In this document: piece after piece, positions 4,349 to 18,773 of the stretch | Layout of the letters: each line of letters begins with the position of its first letter | Numbering within the stretch: position 1 is the stretch's first letter | IMG/VR virus record: IMGVR_UViG_3300031896_000088 | Location: 1 to 27,518 of that record | DNA length: 27,518 nt | Origin: a virus | Taxonomy: Duplodnaviria > Caudoviricetes | Direction: 5' to 3' (one strand) | Notes under the pieces: generated by a model | What the model saw: the letters and a program-made list of their open reading frames with translations, nothing else | Databases searched by the model: none | Told to the model about the DNA's origin: nothing | Program-made: the position numbers and the translations under genes

Positions 4349-6328
4349 ATGAGCAAAAGAGTATTTGCGGAACTCAGCCCATCGGGTGATGCGATCGAGG
4401 TTCATTTTCGTTATGACATCGATCTCCTCAACCTGATGCGAGAGCTACCAGGTGCTCGATACATCAACCAGCAACAGGGTGGGCCTCACTGGCTCGTTCC
4501 ACTCAATCTCGATAGTGCGAGACGGTTGAACGAGAACATGGGCCCAGATTTGGTGCTGGGTCTAGCACTACGGCAGTGGGGAAAGGAAGCAACGAAGCGT
4601 GAAGCCAGCTTGCAGACCATGGCGATCACTGATGATCTGCCGTTGGGCAAGCTGAAAATCGCGAAGGAACTTCCAGAGCTCGCAGAGTGGCTGCGTGGCT
4701 ACCAACGGGCAGACACGCAGTTCCTTGCGGCAACTTCCGCACTGAACCTCAATCAGCAGCGCCTCGGGAAGACCCCTGAGACCATCGCTGCTATCTTCGA
4801 GGCTGGGCTGGAGCAGGGACCACACCTGGTCGCTGCCCCGCGCACCAGCCTCAACACCGTGTGGCGTTTCGAAATCGAGCGTTGGACAGCGAAGCTCGAG
4901 AAACCGCACGAGGTCATCACCTACTCAGGTGAGATGACTAAGACCGCACGCCAGGCTGCAATTGATGAGTTCTGGCAATGCATCGACGACGAGTGGCCAG
5001 TCTGGTTTGTTTGCACCTACCAGACTGTACGCGATGGAGCCGAGCCGTTCATGGATCCCACTGAGTTTCCGGATGGCTGGGCGACCTTCACCATCGACGA
5101 GTTCCACAAGTCAGGACTACCGCGTGCCAATGGGAAGGGTAACGATGTGAAGGGTAACAGCAAGTTCTCGCTTGCGTGCAAGCAGATCAACGCACAAAGG
5201 CGTTACGCGCTGTCGGGCACCCCGATGGGAGGCAAGCCTATCAAGCTGTGGGGTGCGCTTCACTTCCTGTACCCACAGCAGTTCACCAGCAAGTGGCAGT
5301 GGGCTAAGACCTGGCTCGAAGTCAGCAACAACGGCTTCGGCACTGACATCGGTAGCATTCAGCGCGGACGCGCTGATGAGTTCTACCGGACCCACGCACC
5401 ATACATGGTCCGCAGGCTGCGGTCTGAGGTTCTGCCTCAGCTACCGCCAGCGCAATGGATCGACGTCTGGTGCGACATGTCACCCGCGCAAGCCAAGCAG
5501 TACCAAGAGTTCGCTGCACGTGCGGAGACGACGATCGAGGATCTTCAGCTCAATGCACTCGGCATTCTCGCCGAGTACACGCGGTTGAAGGTGTTCGCTG
5601 ACTCGTACTGCGCCACGATGCAGGAGCGAGAGGTACGTTGCGACCGCTGCGACGGTACTGGTGACATCAACGGCATGACTTGCGTTCGGTGCATCGGCAC
5701 CGGCAAGCGCAAGGTGCAGCATCCGATCCCGACTGCCCAAGAGCCGGGCGGCAACTTGTCTGGCAAGCTGCCGTTCCTGCTTGAGCGTCTGGCGGAGCAG
5801 GGCATCGTCGGTGCCAAGGTGCGCGGTGAGGAGGCTGATGACGCTGAAGGCGATTCGCTCGCCATCGTCGCGTCTCAGTTCAAGGAGATCGCGGACATGT
5901 ACCATGCGTATCTCAACCACATCGGCATCAAGGCTGTGAAGATCACCGGTGACACGAAGGATGAGGAGCGAACGGTCAACCAGATGCTGTTCCGTCAGGA
6001 TGGCACCAGACGACCGGACGATCCTCGCGTGATCGTCATGACCACCACAGCTGGCGGTGTCGCAATCACGCTTGACCTCGTGGAGAACGTCCACATCATG
6101 GACGAGACGTGGACTCCCGACGACCAGGAACAGCTGGCCGATCGGGCAGTCAACACCTCACGCATGCACCAGGTGGGTGTGTATGTCTACCGTTCCAGGA
6201 ACACGGTCGAGCATCATATCGCCGAGACCAACGTCGATAAGGCTCACATCAACCGTGAGATCCTCGACTTGCGGCGACAGGGCTTCCGCGCGACCATGCG
6301 TGAAGAGGCCAAGAACGGGAAGTCATGA
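4349..6328 (+). CDS. SNF2-like (SF2) helicase/translocase with a CxxCxGxG zinc-finger insertion
   Basis: LRGYQ (Q motif), RLGKT (I), DEFH (II), LSGTP (III), MVRRLRSEVLPQLP, TAGGVAITL (V), WTP..QEQLADRA (VI); insertion CDRCDGTG...CVRCIGTG. Confidence 0.9.
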   Translation: MSKRVFAELSPSGDAIEVHFRYDIDLLNLMRELPGARYINQQQGGPHWLVPLNLDSARRLNENMGPDLVLGLALRQWGKEATKREASLQTMAITDDLPLGKLKIAKELPELAEWLRGYQRADTQFLAATSALNLNQQRLGKTPETIAAIFEAGLEQGPHLVAAPRTSLNTVWRFEIERWTAKLEKPHEVITYSGEMTKTARQAAIDEFWQCIDDEWPVWFVCTYQTVRDGAEPFMDPTEFPDGWATFTIDEFHKSGLPRANGKGNDVKGNSKFSLACKQINAQRRYALSGTPMGGKPIKLWGALHFLYPQQFTSKWQWAKTWLEVSNNGFGTDIGSIQRGRADEFYRTHAPYMVRRLRSEVLPQLPPAQWIDVWCDMSPAQAKQYQEFAARAETTIEDLQLNALGILAEYTRLKVFADSYCATMQEREVRCDRCDGTGDINGMTCVRCIGTGKRKVQHPIPTAQEPGGNLSGKLPFLLERLAEQGIVGAKVRGEEADDAEGDSLAIVASQFKEIADMYHAYLNHIGIKAVKITGDTKDEERTVNQMLFRQDGTRRPDDPRVIVMTTTAGGVAITLDLVENVHIMDETWTPDDQEQLADRAVNTSRMHQVGVYVYRSRNTVEHHIAETNVDKAHINREILDLRRQGFRATMREEAKNGKS

Positions 6329-9442: not shown

Positions 9443-10340
9443 ACGCGCAGCCCCACAGCGTAGGGATGCACAGTCTAATCAGTACGACATTCTTGCCGGT
9501 ATCACGCCGGTAGGTACGGGTGACTGGATACGGCTAGGATTGTACAGCTATCCTGGTTGGGGCAAGACGTCCCTGGCGGGCACAGCCGCTGAGGCAGGAC
9601 GCACGCTTATCATACACAGTAGCCTCAGCCTGCTACCGTCACGCATTCTGAAGCTGCCGAATCTAGAGCATTTCTTGGCCGACAACTGGGAGCAGATGCT
9701 TGAGGTGCAGGAATACCTACGCATGAGCCAGCATCCGTACCTGTGGGTGTGGTGGGACTGCGTCAGTATTGATCAAGACGTGCTGCTGGATGATGTTTGG
9801 GACGCTACCGTGGCTGAGAAGCCTGCTCGCGCATACCAGATCGGCGCTGATGGCAAGCCTGGTAAGCCCAATTTGTCGCCAACCAGCGGCCTCGATCGCG
9901 GTGAGTACGGCCGCAACATGGAGCGGATACAGCAATGGATCCGACACATGGTCGGTGCAAACAGCTTTCACTTCGGGGTCACATTCCACCCGCATGAAGG
10001 GCAGCATCCTACCAATGATGAGGGTGGATCACTTCTCCGTCCGTATGTGCAGGGCAGAAACATGACGGAGAAGATCTGTGGGTACATGAACATGGTCGCA
10101 TTCTTGGAGGTGATTGAAAACGACGACAAAGATCTGAAGTGGCGTCGGCTGCATGTGGCGGAGAATAGCCGATTCTATGCCAAAGATCAGTACGACGCTT
10201 TCTTGCCCAAGGGCTACACGGACAACCCAACAATACCGAAGATCATGAGGGCAATCGAGGGTGCACGTGGTAAGCCACTGGGTGGGACATACCACACCAC
10301 CAACAACGGACCACGCCGTCGTGGTCGAAGGGAGCAATAG
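9432..10340 (+). CDS. AAA_24/Sak4-like P-loop ATPase (putative recombinase)
   Basis: Walker A LYSYPGWGKT, Walker B WVWWDCVS, EYG and AKDQ motifs; located between the exonuclease and the SSB-like gene. Confidence 0.8.
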   Translation: MAGRRAAPQRRDAQSNQYDILAGITPVGTGDWIRLGLYSYPGWGKTSLAGTAAEAGRTLIIHSSLSLLPSRILKLPNLEHFLADNWEQMLEVQEYLRMSQHPYLWVWWDCVSIDQDVLLDDVWDATVAEKPARAYQIGADGKPGKPNLSPTSGLDRGEYGRNMERIQQWIRHMVGANSFHFGVTFHPHEGQHPTNDEGGSLLRPYVQGRNMTEKICGYMNMVAFLEVIENDDKDLKWRRLHVAENSRFYAKDQYDAFLPKGYTDNPTIPKIMRAIEGARGKPLGGTYHTTNNGPRRRGRREQ

Positions 10341-11224
10341 TGGCAAAATTGATCAAGTACGACGTCTCAGGCGTCGAGGAGTCAGGTGGCGGCACCGGCG
10401 TGAAGGTGAAGCCAGGACTGCGCATCGCCAAGATCGTCCGCTGCCAACAGCGCGAAGCGAAGCGGGACGGATCACCCGCCAACGATATCGAGGTCGCGCT
10501 CGACTTCGGGTCTGAGTACGACTGGGGCTTCACATACATCGGTCTCAGCGAAGCTGCCGACTGGAAGCTGGCCGAATTCGTACGCGCAGTGGGGCTCAAG
10601 GACAGAGGCCAATTCGACCCCGACAAGATGCTCGACAAGTTCGTGCGCGTCAAGGTCAACTCTGGCCAGTACGAGGGTGAGTACAGCCCGCAGATGGGCA
10701 AGTTGATGAAAGCTGTGTCTGGCGACGACGAGACGTGGGCTGAGGGCAACGGTTCAGTCAGCGAGCTCTCAGGCAGCAGCAAGAGTGGTCCCGAAGATGA
10801 CGACGACAACGGAGATGACGACGACGACGCAGCCGTCGACACCAAGACATACAGCAAAGCTGGCTTCGAGCCGTCGCGCGAGGGTGAGGAGTTCGGCTCG
10901 TACGACGACTGGACAGACGACGACTTGTACGCAGAGGCTGAGGACCGTGACCTCACCCTGCCCGGTGGTAGGGGCAGCAAGCGCAACAAGACCATTGCGG
11001 CTCTGCGCGCAGAGGACAACGCTGTGTCGGATGCGGCGGACGAAGCTGAGACCACCGAAGACGACTACGACGAGTGGGACCTCGACCAGCTGAAGGAGGA
11101 GTGGGATCAGCGTCAGCTGGGTAAGCTGCCGGCAATCCGTGGGCGTGGTGCTGAGGAGCGCATGATGGCCGCCATCATCGAGCAGCTTCGCGCCGACGAC
11201 TCCGAGAATCCATTCGACGCATAG
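10340..11224 (+). CDS. SSB-like (DUF669-type OB fold) protein with an acidic linker and two small helical repeats
   Basis: N-terminal beta pattern (PG.RIAKIV...WKLAEFVRAVG...VRVKV..YEG), long Asp tract, two YD.W..D.L..E...R.L repeats and a C-terminal NPF tail. Confidence 0.7.
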   Translation: MAKLIKYDVSGVEESGGGTGVKVKPGLRIAKIVRCQQREAKRDGSPANDIEVALDFGSEYDWGFTYIGLSEAADWKLAEFVRAVGLKDRGQFDPDKMLDKFVRVKVNSGQYEGEYSPQMGKLMKAVSGDDETWAEGNGSVSELSGSSKSGPEDDDDNGDDDDDAAVDTKTYSKAGFEPSREGEEFGSYDDWTDDDLYAEAEDRDLTLPGGRGSKRNKTIAALRAEDNAVSDAADEAETTEDDYDEWDLDQLKEEWDQRQLGKLPAIRGRGAEERMMAAIIEQLRADDSENPFDA

Positions 11225-11544: not shown

Positions 11545-14352
11545 ATGCCCGTCACAAAACGACAGATTCGTCTGCTTGCCCCATATCTTGAGGGCGAACA
11601 GCCGACCCATATAAACATCGACGGTACGCGGGAGTGGAACCTGAAGTGCCCGCTGCATGACGATGAGAAGCGGTCCGCCAGTCTCAACATTGAGAAGGGT
11701 GTGTTCTACTGCTTCCGTTGTGGTGGTATGCCCATCACGGCGCTGATCAGGCGCATGAGCGAGTGGCGTGAGACTGACGGTCACAGTAATGGTGATCCCG
11801 ACCTTAATGGGCAGCCTACGCCAAAGCCCACACGTCTGCTCAATGAAGGCATGATCGCAGGCTGGCACAGCGCACTGCTCAGCAACGAGAGCGCACTACA
11901 ATGGCTGCTAGAGCGGCGCGGCATCACGCTAGAGACCGTGCGTACCTACGAGATCGGTATGGAAGACAAGAAGCACTACACCATCCCGGTCCGCTCTGTC
12001 GACGGTGAGATACTCAATGTGCGTTACTACAATCCCACGCCCGGTACAGGCAGAAAGATCTGGGGTGAGCGCGGCTACAACAGCCCACCACAGCTGTATC
12101 CTTTGGCTAAGCTGAATGCCGGCCTGGACAAATACATCATCGCTGCCGGTGAATGGGACACCCTTCGCACGCTACAGGCAGGCTACAACTGTGTGACTCG
12201 TACCGCCGGTGAGAACGTGTGGCACACCGAATGGAACGAGTGGTTCAAGGGTAAAACCGTTTATGTCTGCCAAGACCGCGATGAGGAGGGACAAGCGGGC
12301 GCACGAAAGATCGCGCGAGCATTATCTGTGATGGCGGATGTGCGCCTAGTTGAGCTGCCCTATGAGTTGGTCAAGAAGCACGGCAAGGATCTGACCGACT
12401 TCTTCCTCGAGCATGAGGAGAGCGAGCTACAGACCTACCTGGACGCAGCACAGCCTTACGCGCGTGGTAAGCCAGTACCAGAGTTGCAGACAATTTCGGT
12501 GCTGGATACATTTGACTCCAAGCGTATAGGCAAGCCTGTGCGCGTTATGGTTACTATCAGAGGCAGGAAAGAGCCTGGCTACTCGGTGCCGCAGGTGATA
12601 CGGCTGGCATGTACACAAGATGCCGGCAACAAGTGTCATTCCTGCCCTCTTAACGGGCTGAATGGCGAGACAGAGATCAACGTGGCTAGCGACAACCCGA
12701 TGGTGTTGTCTATGATTGAGTCTTCGATCAATACGTTAAACCAGGTCATCGCTGAATCATTCGGCATCCCGGGAGGGAGGTGCACGAAGCTGCAGTTCGA
12801 ACACCTCGAGCATCAAGCCGTTGAGGTGCTGTATGGTAGACCAGCCCTGGACTACACCGACGGATCCGAACGCGGTCCTAGTGCTGCTGCATACAAGAAC
12901 ATCACGATCACGTCCGTGGGGAGATACGACACCGCACCGAATAACACGGTTAGTGTCATTGGAGCTCTACATCCTAATCCGCGCACGCATAACAACGAGT
13001 TCCTGGCTTCTGAACTAACGCAGATGGAAACGAGCGTTGACCGCTTTGACCTGGACGCTAAAACAATCAAGATGTTGCGTCGGTTCCAGCCTAGCAGCAT
13101 ACAGACGCCTCTCAAGAAGGTGGCCGAGATCAGTCGTGCGCTGGCTTCACATGTCACACACATACACGGACGTCCAGAGATGCATGCGCTCATGGATCTG
13201 ACGTTCCACAGCCTACTGTCTTTCAATTTTGCAGGTGAGCTCGTAGCGCGAGGGTGGCTGGAATCACTCATCATCGGTGATACGCGCACGGGCAAGAGCC
13301 TGGCAGCCGAGCGGTTGGTCCGCCACTTCGGGGGAGGCGAGATCATAAGCTGTGAGGCTGCCAGTTTTGCTGGAGTGGTGGGTGGTGTGCAGCAACTCAA
13401 TGGTAGAGAATGGGCGATCACCTGGGGTGTGGTGCCGCTCAATGACCGGCGTCTGGTGGTGATGGACGAGATCAGCGGTCTTACGCCTGAGCAGATCGGA
13501 CAAATGAGCGATATCCGTTCATCCGGGCAAGCAAAGCTGACGAAGATTCAGCAGGAGACGACGTGGGCACGTACACGGTTACTATGGCTGGGCAATCCGC
13601 GTAACGCGACGATGGCAAACTACACCTACGGCGTGGACGCTATCAAGCCGCTGATTGGCAACGCTGAGGACATCGCCCGTTTCGATCTGGCGATGGCCGC
13701 CACACTGTACGATGTACCGGCTGAGACTATCAACCAACCTGCGAGTGGTGGTGAGCTACGGTACACGGAAGAGGCGTGCCATAACATGTTGATGTGGACC
13801 TGGACGCGCACTGCCGACCAGGTGCGGTTCTATAAGCCCGCCGAAGAGCAGATCTTCAACGCAGCAAATGAGATGGGCAAGATGTACATCGAAGATCCAC
13901 CGCTTGTACAGGCAGCGAATATCCGCATCAAGATCGCACGTGTAGCGGCTGCCCTGGCTGCTCGCACATTCAGCACGGACGCTAAGGGTGAGAGCGTCAT
14001 CGTTACACCAGCGCATGTGAAAGACGCTGTGGCGTTCATGAATCTGATCTACAACATGCCGGCGTTCGGCTATCGCGAACGCTCGAAGGAGATGTTGTCT
14101 GACAGATCGGAGGCTGAGAACAACAAGGATAAGATCAGAGAGTACCTACTAGGCCGTAAGCTGTTGGCCAAGCATCTGCGTAACGCAGGAAAGTTCCGTC
14201 GTCAGGATCTCGAGGAGCTCCTCAACATCAGCCGAGACGAGGCAAACGCCATCATCAACACACTGTACGAAGCCAGAATGATACGAAGGGTGCTGGGCGA
14301 CATCTATGTCGAGCCAACACTGCATGCGCTCTTGAGGGAGGTAAAGCTGTGA
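11545..14352 (+). CDS. CHC2 zinc finger + TOPRIM primase-like region fused to an MCM-family AAA+ helicase
   Basis: CPLHDD...SAS...FYCFRCG; AAGEWD / QDRDEEG / GKDLTDFF. MCM motifs LIIGDTRTGKS, VVMDEI, ARTRLLWLGNP and arginine finger ARFDL; winged-helix-like C-terminus. Confidence 0.85.
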   Translation: MPVTKRQIRLLAPYLEGEQPTHINIDGTREWNLKCPLHDDEKRSASLNIEKGVFYCFRCGGMPITALIRRMSEWRETDGHSNGDPDLNGQPTPKPTRLLNEGMIAGWHSALLSNESALQWLLERRGITLETVRTYEIGMEDKKHYTIPVRSVDGEILNVRYYNPTPGTGRKIWGERGYNSPPQLYPLAKLNAGLDKYIIAAGEWDTLRTLQAGYNCVTRTAGENVWHTEWNEWFKGKTVYVCQDRDEEGQAGARKIARALSVMADVRLVELPYELVKKHGKDLTDFFLEHEESELQTYLDAAQPYARGKPVPELQTISVLDTFDSKRIGKPVRVMVTIRGRKEPGYSVPQVIRLACTQDAGNKCHSCPLNGLNGETEINVASDNPMVLSMIESSINTLNQVIAESFGIPGGRCTKLQFEHLEHQAVEVLYGRPALDYTDGSERGPSAAAYKNITITSVGRYDTAPNNTVSVIGALHPNPRTHNNEFLASELTQMETSVDRFDLDAKTIKMLRRFQPSSIQTPLKKVAEISRALASHVTHIHGRPEMHALMDLTFHSLLSFNFAGELVARGWLESLIIGDTRTGKSLAAERLVRHFGGGEIISCEAASFAGVVGGVQQLNGREWAITWGVVPLNDRRLVVMDEISGLTPEQIGQMSDIRSSGQAKLTKIQQETTWARTRLLWLGNPRNATMANYTYGVDAIKPLIGNAEDIARFDLAMAATLYDVPAETINQPASGGELRYTEEACHNMLMWTWTRTADQVRFYKPAEEQIFNAANEMGKMYIEDPPLVQAANIRIKIARVAAALAARTFSTDAKGESVIVTPAHVKDAVAFMNLIYNMPAFGYRERSKEMLSDRSEAENNKDKIREYLLGRKLLAKHLRNAGKFRRQDLEELLNISRDEANAIINTLYEARMIRRVLGDIYVEPTLHALLREVKL

Positions 14353-15107: not shown

Positions 15108-15451
15108 CCGGAGAACACTTGCAGCAAGTCATTCAGACATTCGGGCGAGGTACGCTCGTCACCAGTGACGTGGGCGACTACTTCGATGTGGTACGTGATG
15201 CGTACAACGTACACCTGGATCGTGAGGAGATCAGGTGTGGGCTGTGGAAAGAGTACACAGCTATGGACCAAGTCAACACAATGCGCTTGAAAGTCGACCG
15301 TGTAGTGCGCTCACTCGAGAGACTCGAGATCATGCGCAATGGCGACCAAGATGGCTTAGCAGAGTTGATCGAGCAGCTGACCTTCAGCACAGCAAGTGAG
15401 CTACATGACATCATCAACTATGCGAATTTCGCGGTGAGGCAACTTGGCTGA
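15104..15451 (+). CDS. DUF1599/nucleotide-modification-associated, MazG-like all-alpha protein
   Basis: ATGA overlap; MRLKVDRV...ELHDIINYANF resembles the K..R...D.L.DlaNYa pattern. Confidence 0.6.
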   Translation: MTGEHLQQVIQTFGRGTLVTSDVGDYFDVVRDAYNVHLDREEIRCGLWKEYTAMDQVNTMRLKVDRVVRSLERLEIMRNGDQDGLAELIEQLTFSTASELHDIINYANFAVRQLG

Positions 15452-18400
15452 ACGCGGACACGAACGTAGTGAACACGGACTAGACGAACTCAGCGTCCGC
15501 GTACCCGTTTATAGAGACGAGCATGTACAAGCACCTGTTCTGGTTCGAAAAGTCAAACGCACACGGCGACTACCGCAACGGTCAAGGGAGATGACATTTG
15601 CGAGTCTCCATCATCATACAACCTTCTCGTACGGAGACGGTTATTCTCTCCCCGAAGCTCACGTTAGACGAGCAGCGGAGATTGGCATGGCATCTCTCGC
15701 AGTCACTGAACACGGAAACATTTCTAGTCACGTTCAAATGGAAGTGGCTGCGAAGAAGATGGGTATCAAACCCATCTACGGCGTGGAGCTATACACCGGA
15801 GGGCTCGGAGAGACAGCTACACAACGTAAGAATCACCTTACAGTCCTTGCTGAAGATACCAGAGGATACCAAAATCTCCTTCAACTGGTAAGCGCAACCT
15901 ACGCGGAGGGTTTCTATCATGAGCCAACTGCTGATGGAAGAATGCTTGCCGCCCATAGTGGTGGGCTTGTTGTTCTATCTGGTTGTCAGGGCAGTGCGCT
16001 CTTCACGGCACTCGTCGGAGGAAAGCATATTGCTGAGTCGGATGCTAGCTACTCACGCGCTCGAAGAGTTGCCTCACAGTTCAAGAGGACATTCGGTGAC
16101 AGCTACTACATTGAATTACAGGCCTTTCCTGAGCTCGAGAAGACGCGTCGGGCCAATCCGTTACTGGCTCAGATTGCGGAGGAGCTACATATTCCATACG
16201 TGGTGACGTTCGACTGTCACTACACCGTGCCCGAGGAGAAGGAGATGCAGAAGATCCTGCACAACCTTCGCCCCGGCGAGCGACGATCACTGGAGGACAT
16301 GGCGCGTGAATGGGGATATGATTCCAATCTCTGTCCGCCTTGGACCGACGCCATGGTCATACGTAAACTTATGGGTACAGGGCTCACACGTGCTCAATCC
16401 ATTCGGGCAACACTTACCACGAGGGACGTGGCAGACCGTTGTCTGGTCACGCTTCCCTCGCTGCCTATGGTTCGCTATCCTCTCCCACCAGGGTATTCAG
16501 ACCCGGTACATCTATGGCGAGACTGGCTGAAAGAGGGGTGGAAGTATCGAGGTTGCCACCGACTATCGGCAACAGAGCGGCGACGCTACAAGGAGAGGCT
16601 CCAGCATGAGGCCAAGATCATCGAGGACAAAGACTTCGTCGACTACTTCCTCATCATCAGTGATGCTGTACGATACGCAAAGGATCGGGACATTGCTGTG
16701 GGACCGGCAAGAGGATCTGCCGCTGGTTCCCTCGCTTGTTGGCTCCTCCGCATCACTGAAGTCAACCCCATGCTCTACGATGATCTTGTTTTCGAACGAT
16801 TCATTGACGTCACGCGCCAAGATCTGCCTGACGTTGATATCGACTTCTCTTCGGATCGCCGCTCGGAGGTCTACAGTTACTTTGTTGCAAAGTACGGAAC
16901 AGATCAAGTCAGCAACGTCGGCACCTTCACGCGATTCAAGGGGAAGAACAGTCTGGACGCTGCCGCCCGAGTCTTTCACGTTCCCAAGTGGGAAATCGAC
17001 AAAGTCAAGGATGTTCTCATCGAACGATCTTCGGGTGACCTCCGGGCTAGTGCTACTATTGAGGACACAGCTGAGCAATTCCCGCAAGCTCGCGATGTCT
17101 TTGAGCGATACCCCGATCTTGGAGCGGCGCTCGATCTGGAAGGAAACTATGCAGGATTTGGCGTCCATTCTGCAGGTCTTGTCATCTCAACTGGACCAAT
17201 TACAGAGGTCGCAGCTTTCTACGAGCGGGATGTAAAGGGTGAGAAACGACGTGTCATCAGTATGGACAAGTACGACGCTGAGAAGAAGGGTCTGCTCAAG
17301 ATCGACGCGCTGGGACTCAGCACTGTGCAAGCCCTTGATCATATGCGAAAGGAGATGGACTGGACTCTTGACGAACTCTACAATCTACCACTGGACGATC
17401 CGGAAGTTATTCAGGGATTCAAGGAGAACGACGTCACCGGCGTCTTTCAGTTTGATGGGCGTGCGTGCCGATACGTCAACGGTGCTCTCCAACCGGAACA
17501 CTTCAAGCACATCTACGACGTTACTGCCCTCGGACGACCTGGACCCCTCCACAATGGAGCCGCCAACGCCTACATAGACATCAAGTGGGGACGCGCTGAG
17601 CCAGAGCTCCTTCATCCGGCGATGAGCAATATCTGCGATTCCACCTACGGACAGATCGTGTACCAGGAGCAGATCCTTCGCATCTTGGGAGACGTGTTCG
17701 ACTTCGACTGGACACACAGAGCCGAGGTGCGAAGGATCATCTCGAAGAAGCACGGTGATCAGGAATTCAACCGTAAGTGGGAGCAAGCACTGACCGGCGC
17801 GATGAAGCTACACGGTGACGACGGTATCATGACGCCTGAGCTCGCACGAGGAATCTGGATGCGGTTGATCACGGCAGGATCCTATGCCTTCAACGCATCC
17901 CATGCGGTGAGTTACGGGATGATCGGATATCAAACAATGTGGTTCAAGCGCAAGCATCCAGAGGTCTTCTATCTGGCGTCACTCAATGTCACGGACGACG
18001 ACGATAAGGTACGACGCCTGCTCCGCGACTCGCAGCGGTTCGGTCGTAGCGTGGAGATTAAGCCACCGCACCCGAGATCTAGTAGGGTACGGTGGTCTAA
18101 GGAAGACGACGCACTTACGGCAGGCTTCTCGCAGGTGCCGGGTATCGGGGTCAAAACGGGCAATGCGATTGTTGCCTACCGTGAAGAACATGGTATGGAG
18201 GACTGGGAAGATCTACTCAACGTCAAAGGCATAGGACCAATCACAATGGAAGCAATCCGAAAGTTCTCACAAAAGGGCGATGATCCATTCGGCGCGCTAT
18301 GGCTTGACCGTGCCATCGCCTCGGTGAAGCACGAGATCATCCATCCCGACGGAGAGCTCTATCGTGAGGTGCCCCAGCCTACACATGTGGCGACAGACCT

Positions 18401-18773
18401 GCCCTACGAACGGGGCGACGACATTGAGGTGATCTGGCTGGGTTGTATCTATACGCGCAACGAGCGCGATCTCTTTGAGTTCAACCAGGCTAAGGGTGCT
18501 GAGTTAGACATGTCTGATCCGAAGCACCCAAAACTCAACGGTCAGCCCATCCGCGATCCGCACCTAGATAAGTGGGTTGTTATGGTGGGTGACGACGAAA
18601 CAGACCAGCTGGGTCTGCGCGTGGATAGGTGGCGCTATCCCCGGCTGAGAGATCAGGTCTGGAGACTGCGTCCAGGGAAAGACCTGGTATTGGTAAGAGG
18701 GGTCAAGCCGGGGTGGATGCCCACAAGACAGATTACAATCAGCGAGATGTGGGTTATCGACCCAGAGATGTGA
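15444..18773 (+). CDS. dnaE: DNA polymerase III alpha subunit (C family, PHP domain)
   Basis: FASLHHHTTFSYGDG, AVTEHGN, GPARGSAAGSL, FERF...R.DLPDVDID, GVHSAG, LLKIDALGL, YQEQI, YAFNASHA. Start is TTG 15444 (SD GGTGAGG) or ATG 15591. Confidence 0.97.
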   Translation: MAERGHERSEHGLDELSVRVPVYRDEHVQAPVLVRKVKRTRRLPQRSREMTFASLHHHTTFSYGDGYSLPEAHVRRAAEIGMASLAVTEHGNISSHVQMEVAAKKMGIKPIYGVELYTGGLGETATQRKNHLTVLAEDTRGYQNLLQLVSATYAEGFYHEPTADGRMLAAHSGGLVVLSGCQGSALFTALVGGKHIAESDASYSRARRVASQFKRTFGDSYYIELQAFPELEKTRRANPLLAQIAEELHIPYVVTFDCHYTVPEEKEMQKILHNLRPGERRSLEDMAREWGYDSNLCPPWTDAMVIRKLMGTGLTRAQSIRATLTTRDVADRCLVTLPSLPMVRYPLPPGYSDPVHLWRDWLKEGWKYRGCHRLSATERRRYKERLQHEAKIIEDKDFVDYFLIISDAVRYAKDRDIAVGPARGSAAGSLACWLLRITEVNPMLYDDLVFERFIDVTRQDLPDVDIDFSSDRRSEVYSYFVAKYGTDQVSNVGTFTRFKGKNSLDAAARVFHVPKWEIDKVKDVLIERSSGDLRASATIEDTAEQFPQARDVFERYPDLGAALDLEGNYAGFGVHSAGLVISTGPITEVAAFYERDVKGEKRRVISMDKYDAEKKGLLKIDALGLSTVQALDHMRKEMDWTLDELYNLPLDDPEVIQGFKENDVTGVFQFDGRACRYVNGALQPEHFKHIYDVTALGRPGPLHNGAANAYIDIKWGRAEPELLHPAMSNICDSTYGQIVYQEQILRILGDVFDFDWTHRAEVRRIISKKHGDQEFNRKWEQALTGAMKLHGDDGIMTPELARGIWMRLITAGSYAFNASHAVSYGMIGYQTMWFKRKHPEVFYLASLNVTDDDDKVRRLLRDSQRFGRSVEIKPPHPRSSRVRWSKEDDALTAGFSQVPGIGVKTGNAIVAYREEHGMEDWEDLLNVKGIGPITMEAIRKFSQKGDDPFGALWLDRAIASVKHEIIHPDGELYREVPQPTHVATDLPYERGDDIEVIWLGCIYTRNERDLFEFNQAKGAELDMSDPKHPKLNGQPIRDPHLDKWVVMVGDDETDQLGLRVDRWRYPRLRDQVWRLRPGKDLVLVRGVKPGWMPTRQITISEMWVIDPEM

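Follow-up and report, generated by a model that had tools for sequence, protein, structure and literature searches.

A row of open reading frames (ORFs) led by Shine-Dalgarno (SD) sequences lies in the +1 frame across the 5' two-thirds of the phage polymerase gene dnaE, and appears to be kept by selection across relatives. At a probability of about 0.7, we read these ORFs as selectively maintained and translated into small basic accessory proteins, with at least those of slots B and D acting as proteins. On the replication-gene mRNA, each internal SD would recruit ribosomes on its own, each product would come from its own internal start, and the slots would be gained, lost, fused (D and E here) or restarted lineage by lineage. 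The wobble bases of dnaE would serve at the same time as the second (middle) positions of the +1 codons, and this double use would explain why the dnaE wobble is A/T-rich. Sequence comparison points to a modular set of genes overprinted on an essential one, a real feature that is under selection and likely translated.

The dnaE host frame and its +1 slots

The window, the whole stretch of 27,518 nt that was analysed, is a linear virus record that is ~45% complete. Its replication module comprises, by Pfam, an SNF2 helicase, a PD-(D/E)XK nuclease, an AAA ATPase, a primase-MCM, DnaE and ThyX, and is faced by baseplate genes. All 24 runs listed for the window sequence are soil metagenomes, with no RNA dataset among them; contigs from 4/4 runs reproduced the sequence without differences and in long pieces, these runs possibly being the window's own source. 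The window DnaE matches 1440 phage records. Its nearest cultured counterparts (~43-44% identity) come from phages of Microbacterium, Arthrobacter and cluster D Mycobacterium, from which we infer an actinobacterial host.

ATG 15591, taken as the dnaE start in the original prediction, is probably internal. The dnaE frame runs open beyond it and the upstream extension is conserved in relatives, so the start is likely TTG 15444, overlapping the stop of the upstream gene, and all SDs discussed here are internal. Positions 15444-15590 encode a basic conserved N-terminal extension of DnaE (~45-50 aa, ...VRKVKRTRRLPQR.KE) ahead of the PHP domain. Codon numbers in dnaE are counted from 15591. The slots all lie wholly inside the intact dnaE, on the same strand and in another frame:

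15444..18773, + strand: phage dnaE, the host frame, with PHP, NTPase, finger and HhH domains (Pfam, PHROGs phrog_405, conserved N-terminal extension, start context)
15584..15590, + strand: putative slot A SD AAGGGAG, internal, 7 nt 5' of TTG 15598 (SD/start co-occurrence)
15598..15891, + strand: slot A, +1 ORF, 97 aa (start conserved, synonymous constraint absent)
15919..16206, + strand: slot B, +1 ORF, 95 aa, GGAGG (15905-15909) 9 nt before ATG (strongest short-range constraint)
16306..16530, + strand: slot C, +1 ORF, 74 aa, GGAGG (16292-16296) 9 nt before GTG (start kept in a subset of relatives)
16606..17235, + strand: slot D (first ~95 aa, conserved) reading through into slot E, 209 aa, SD AAGGAG-AGG (16590-16598) before ATG (recurrence, constraint, alignment)
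17035..17235, + strand: slot E; the window retains the GTG and its SD is missing, while in relatives a GTG with its own SD opens a separate ORF (coincides in frame and stretch with the Patience ORF)
17239..17577, + strand: slot F, +1 ORF, 112 aa (SD weak, -5.0 kcal/mol; start unsupported)

A recount returned the five +1 ORFs that had been predicted, with +1 stops at 15592, 15889, 16204, 16528, 17233 and 17575, giving five in dnaE codons 3-662. The SDs assigned to TTG 15598, ATG 15919, GTG 16306 and ATG 16606 were all located at their predicted spacing. The comparison gene held up equally, primase-MCM having a single +1 ORF of at least 60 aa (12821-13018), as did the A/T-rich wobble: GC3 is 0.55 over the +1-ORF stretch of dnaE, against 0.66 in its 3' part and 0.63-0.80 in 12 other window genes.

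Open frames and initiation signals across lineages

The five +1 stops in the 5' stretch of dnaE compare with 16.1 expected from a synonymous shuffle of the whole gene (P=0.0002), 12.9 from a shuffle inside the region (P=0.0008) and 22.5 from the codon usage of the other genes, and correction for the best window gave 0/5000. The deficit exceeds chance, and the codon-shuffle check proposed at the outset places it outside expectation. Since primase-MCM also fell below its own simple shuffle (37 vs 52 stops), we adopted a null that preserves amino acids and next-base context, under which 19.2 stops are expected in the dnaE stretch. This context null fits the primase (11 genes; 412 vs 363 stops, and 1 vs 0.9 long SD-led +1 ORFs) as well as the nuclease, ATPase, ThyX and baseplate J genes, and underpredicts the long SD-led +1 ORFs of the dnaE 5' part ~18-fold.

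Across 20 close lineages, 225 +1 stops were counted against 396 expected in codons 3-662, and 223 against 187 beyond; individual relatives have 5-21 stops, at differing positions. Observed and expected stops per slot were 12/33 in A, 3/32 in B, 34/53 in C, 26/87 in D, 4/45 in E and 29/53 in F, with slot limits set after inspection of the data (B as codons 111-180, F as codons 595-660); between slots the counts were at expectation (ratio 0.85-1.18). The frame is therefore open beyond what host protein and codon usage predict, relatives included, clearly in B, E, D and A and more weakly in C and F. The codon shift behind this is specific to context. G3 of Val/Leu codons is reduced before A (0.14 vs 0.37), T (0.17 vs 0.43) and C (0.26 vs 0.39) and unchanged before G (0.29 vs 0.29), which in +1 means fewer TGA and Cys codons with Trp spared. 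Overall, TGA, TGT, TGC and TAG are lowered in +1 and TGG is not. In the 5' part only, the +1 composition gains E (1.79), D (1.39), L (1.35), K and F, with less C and fewer stops.

Two other genes of the window show low +1 stop counts. The SNF2 helicase gene (4349-6328) has 27 vs 43.4 across three homologues, with 145 open codons in the window and no excess of SD-led +1 starts, and gene 10340-11224 has 65 vs 100.5 across 11 homologues, with SD-led long +1 ORFs in 3/11 (2.4 expected).

To follow the starts, which had been named from the window alone, 62 dnaE sequences were reduced to 36 at 97% nucleotide identity, comprising 28 close lineages (63-73% identical to the window), seven far ones and one split gene, which was omitted; L099 and L104 were reassigned to the close group after results had been seen (tree support for the group, 0.996). 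An SD was scored as AGGAG or GGAGG lying 4-12 nt ahead of ATG or GTG in +1, and the per-slot recurrence and covariation tests also accept GGGAG and TTG, added partway through the analysis. In the dnaE 5' part of the 28 close lineages, SD-plus-start pairs numbered 59 against 19.0 expected, and SD-led +1 ORFs of at least 50 codons 52 against 2.9; because the lineages are akin, such pooled counts overstate independence. The 3' part gave 9 vs 8.6 pairs and 5 vs 1.8 long ORFs, and the +2 frame 6 vs 10.2 and 0 vs 0.8. The seven far lineages had no excess of pairs (6 vs 5.85) and 4 vs 0.98 long ORFs.

Individual starts recur with their SDs. Slot A has SD, start and an ORF of at least 50 codons in 10/18 relatives (0.63 expected), and among 19 lineages SD and TTG occur together in 11, TTG alone in one, neither in seven and SD alone in none. 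The slot B ATG is kept in 15/19 lineages, with SD, start and long ORF in 4/18 relatives (0.21 expected). The corresponding counts are 6/20 for C (0.12 expected), 11/24 for D (0.27) and 14/24 for the SD and GTG of slot E at codon 482 (0.43), where the window instead reads through from 16606. Long ORFs follow the signals: in slot C an ORF of at least 50 codons is found in 7/9 lineages with SD and start vs 1/12 without, and in slot D a long ORF in 12/12 vs 4/13. SDs and starts covary at codons 3 (Fisher P=1.6e-4), 239 (P=0.024), 339 (P=0.010) and 482 (P=6.9e-4), with at least 4, 5, 2 and 7 tree changes, respectively; at codon 110 (slot B) covariation was not significant (P=0.53). Among 701 control pairs of wobble traits, 1.3% reached P 0.01 and 0.14% reached 0.001, so about 0-2% of control pairs attain the values seen at the four covarying sites.

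On this evidence the slots are patchy on the tree, with their own initiation signals maintained in relatives for A, B, C and D and not for the start at 17239, which has an SD and long ORF in 0/27 relatives (0.00 expected). Translation of slot F might depend on coupling to the stop at 17233; in relatives this slot opens from different starts, at codons 593-643. In one subclade (L026, L082, L092) the start is at codon 614 and the slot F product contains a 19-mer of strong hydrophobicity (hydropathy 2.3-2.6), which makes it a candidate membrane protein. Slots C and D are missing from L026, L033 and L034, where ~190 codons are without a detected SD-led ORF. We regard translated nested genes as very probable.

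Further variation was seen elsewhere in the gene. SD-led +1 ORFs occur in the 3' part of L099, L103 and L104 at codon 919 (52-82 aa) and in Nocardia phage P3.1 (L168) at codon 668 (176 aa), which suggests further slots. One DnaE of 1356 codons (L042:10001-14059) has a ~300-codon insertion near window codon 767, possibly an intein, and in the cultured L124, L150, L151, L158 and L152 dnaE is divided into two genes close to codon 300 or 580, in some cases separated by an HNH or small gene.

Synonymous constraint, predicted products and cultured relatives

A first pass over nine lineages gave no four-fold identity peak over the region. The signal emerged when carriers were split from non-carriers, and the earlier absence is put down to saturation and to the mixing of the two. 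Among close pairs, four-fold identity is 0.76 in B (181/239), 0.63 in E and 0.62 in D, against 0.48 outside; slots C (34/70=0.49) and A (59/131=0.45) show no constraint over this background. The slot B carrier lists took in lineages with the ATG and a weaker SD. Shared ORFs were more conserved inside in seven of eight close pairs, a ninth pair having no shared ORF. In distant comparisons, slot D carriers reach 0.436 vs 0.305 in the 3' part (0/20,000 column resamplings) and non-carriers 0.311 vs 0.330; a local peak of constraint falls at codons 391-420, and deep constraint was found in D only, with none in B, C or E. Slot D carriers share the pattern S-L-[KR]-S-[TI]-P-C-x-I-L-I-x-S-S-x-x-S-x-x-S-R-x-[KR]-I-x-x-T-L. 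The constraint that had been proposed as a check is thus found in the ORFs at 15919 and 16606 and not in those at 15598 and 16306. On the BLOSUM62 scale, wobble changes inside the ORFs (-1.34) are no more conservative than those of the 3' part (-1.24). A protein-level function is probable for at least B and D.

No family in Pfam or PHROGs matched any +1 product, no homologue of the 209-aa product was found among shorter proteins, and a profile search with slot D returned none. A profile of the cluster-D-like slot B gave two matches lacking context, in which the same nested frame has probably been annotated as a gene. Matches in the ESM Atlas were set aside as mere shadows of DnaE, a stated artefact of shifted frames. 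The younger +1 frame is restricted to few taxa, and the older DnaE frame is widespread. The TM-like and amphipathic segments once read in the products are not conserved among carriers: no TM segment is conserved, the best 19-residue hydropathy being 0.1-2.3 among carriers of slot B and not above 2.0 in C, D and E. As a promoter and terminator scan found promoter-like sites at chance (3 vs 2.5), translation would be from the replication-gene mRNA.

The 18 annotated isolates have about as many +1 stops overall as expected (572 vs 575), and their dnaE genes hold 14 long +1 ORFs led by an SD vs 5.1, three of the 14 in Butterscotch, with 7 vs 9.6 in control genes. The lack of a general stop deficit together with the modest ORF excess indicates a patchy trait. 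No gene nested inside dnaE is annotated in any of 25 annotated isolate dnaE regions. The cluster D phages Butterscotch, Chill and Hawkeye each carry three unannotated SD-led +1 ORFs (145, 77-81 and 145 aa), with identical bounds in Butterscotch and Hawkeye; the predicted Butterscotch starts are at dnaE codons 153, 391 and 477. Four-fold identity of the first Butterscotch ORF is 49/65 inside vs 82/163 outside against Hawkeye (P=4e-4) and 83/84 vs 180/198 against Chill; GC3 falls here to 0.36 at codons 201-250, with 0.72 over the whole gene. In the second ORF constraint was not seen (15/38). The frame of a +1 protein similar to the first cluster D ORF is open in 15 aligned IMG/VR loci, and this ORF may share a common origin with slot B.

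Mycobacteriophage Patience supplies a proteomic precedent. Pope et al. 2014 (PMC4324244) report a 372-bp out-of-frame ORF inside its gene 91 (DnaE), found by mass spectrometry with 17 spectra and seven peptides, ten of the identifications at the N-terminal Met; their Table S1 gives CDS 59546-59983 17 stringent spectra vs 16 for the whole polymerase. The authors describe its function as unclear and its conservation as ambiguous, and allow for an expression artefact. We find that it lies in the +1 frame and ends at window codon ~554 (the window stop is at 548), and from the stated 372 bp it would start near window codon 437; in the window it falls over slot E and over the C-terminal half of ORF 16606-17235. 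The 5' part of Patience dnaE has nine +1 stops vs 18.4. Most of gene 91 (L172:2266-5484) is covered by eight +1 ORFs, 65-145 aa long, despite a GC3 of 0.46; one alone of them appears in the published peptide table, where the slot-B-like ORF (58643-59068 of the Patience record) is absent (PMC4324244). A search of the open-access literature found this paper alone on nested ORFs in phage dnaE.

Competing readings and comparison with known systems

Translation of the +1 frame could matter while its peptides do not, ribosomes shielding the dnaE mRNA from Rho or nucleases or throttling DnaE output. This would suit the starts and open frames of A and C at background four-fold identity, the negative BLOSUM62 test, the widely varying ORF ends, the slot E frame that is open in 11/11 lineages without its SD, and slots that tile the gene, with a stop sometimes adjoining a start. 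We nevertheless consider it unlikely, for constraint follows ORF carriage in D and marks B, the +1 composition is shifted to ordinary protein residues, the lineages without C and D leave their ~190 codons uncovered, and longer genes such as primase-MCM have no such tiling. For slots A and C, protection or throttling by translation may apply. An RNA or DNA element (structure, binding sites or an antisense gene) that constrains the wobble and leaves the +1 ORFs as by-products is quite improbable. Antisense frames are not depleted over the whole 5' part (1.02, 1.19, 1.12), the fold of the D core is weak (SCI 0.30-0.33, with 3' controls unusable owing to gaps), promoter-like sites are at chance, and SD/start covariation and the Patience peptides go unexplained. 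The local nature of the constraint, with its peak at codons 391-420, and a 201-aa antisense ORF at 16563-17168 of the window would fit such an element, as would the low in-register antisense stops in D (27 vs 52) and B (17 vs 27), although this drop shares the NTA codons removed by +1 stop avoidance.

That low G3 and Glu/Gly/Arg-rich motifs give open +1 frames and SD look-alikes by chance and codon bias is highly improbable, being largely refuted by the ORF excess, the SD/start covariation and the recurrence of starts. The shortfall of primase-MCM under its own shuffle, the deficits without SD starts in SNF2 and gene 10340, and the differing stop positions of relatives lean towards it; against them, the null that fits primase and four other genes misses the dnaE 5' part, and the shift removes TGA, TGT, TGC and TAG and spares TGG. 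Least probable is programmed ribosomal frameshifting, in which truncated DnaE fusions with +1 tails would be made and the SDs would act as shift stimulators. Internal SDs do stimulate shifts in prfB and dnaX, and the split of dnaE near codon 300 or 580 in some relatives would be compatible with it. However, three different start codons covary with the SDs, at a distance of 5-10 nt, and the Patience product has ten peptide identifications at its own N-terminal Met (PMC4324244). Of the two proposals in the original prediction, frameshifting is not supported, as the SDs track start codons at initiation spacing; nested genes are supported for four of the five ORFs (recurrence, SD/start covariation, frame-specific stop loss, and constraint in two), and the start at 17239 is not.

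If the nested genes are selectively kept and translated, products that are small and basic, turn over fast and are carried patchily would fit host interaction or counter-defence. It is a guess, and one we would not bet on, that they are fast-evolving factors of this kind, made at replication and tied to an essential gene. Somewhat short of even odds, the actinophage-like DnaE family may be a two-layer cassette with up to six independently initiated +1 accessory genes, likely for counter-defence or host takeover, and repeated de novo birth in the same slots. If so, the cassette genes would escape annotation and could not be parted from the essential polymerase, the slots would offer a natural series for following de novo gene birth, and the 2014 proteomics oddity of Patience would likely be a selected family trait. 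Unannotated candidate genes of this kind lie in the cultured mycobacteriophages Butterscotch, PBI1, Chill, Hawkeye and Patience, with function testable in M. smegmatis.

Embedded phage genes are known from lambda (Rz1 in Rz), T7 (18.7 in 18.5), phiX174 (E in D) and MS2 (L). Like the dnaE slots, these are small genes lying entirely or for the most part inside an older same-strand gene, with their own initiation site. Each of them, however, is a lone lysis gene marked by a conserved membrane or lipoprotein signal, whereas the dnaE slots are several, separately gained and lost, lie in a replicative polymerase and have no conserved TM segment. Most known nested phage genes are lone lysis genes. 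Four to six selected, modular genes in a row within one conserved enzyme would, if true, be a new architecture.

The Patience ORF is the closest likeness, sharing a homologous host gene (37% aa identity), strand, +1 frame and window codons ~437-554. It differs in that one ORF is reported in the published peptide data (PMC4324244), against four to six slots with evidence of selection here, and in its predicted start at ~codon 437 vs 339 in the window and 482 in close relatives. Read side by side, with no statistic, the Patience and window +1 sequences have few identities beyond what DnaE forces. Overprinting in mycobacteriophage tail tips is described in a conference report (PMC12908700). Nested genes and one nested dnaE ORF are already in print, and a selected multi-gene array was not found in the open literature. 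Long overlapping genes under purifying selection are reported in Pseudomonas aeruginosa (PMC8850804), and resemble the slots in that alternative-frame coding is backed by selection analysis; as described there, they are antisense, single and chromosomal, whereas the dnaE slots would form a sense-strand array within a phage enzyme.
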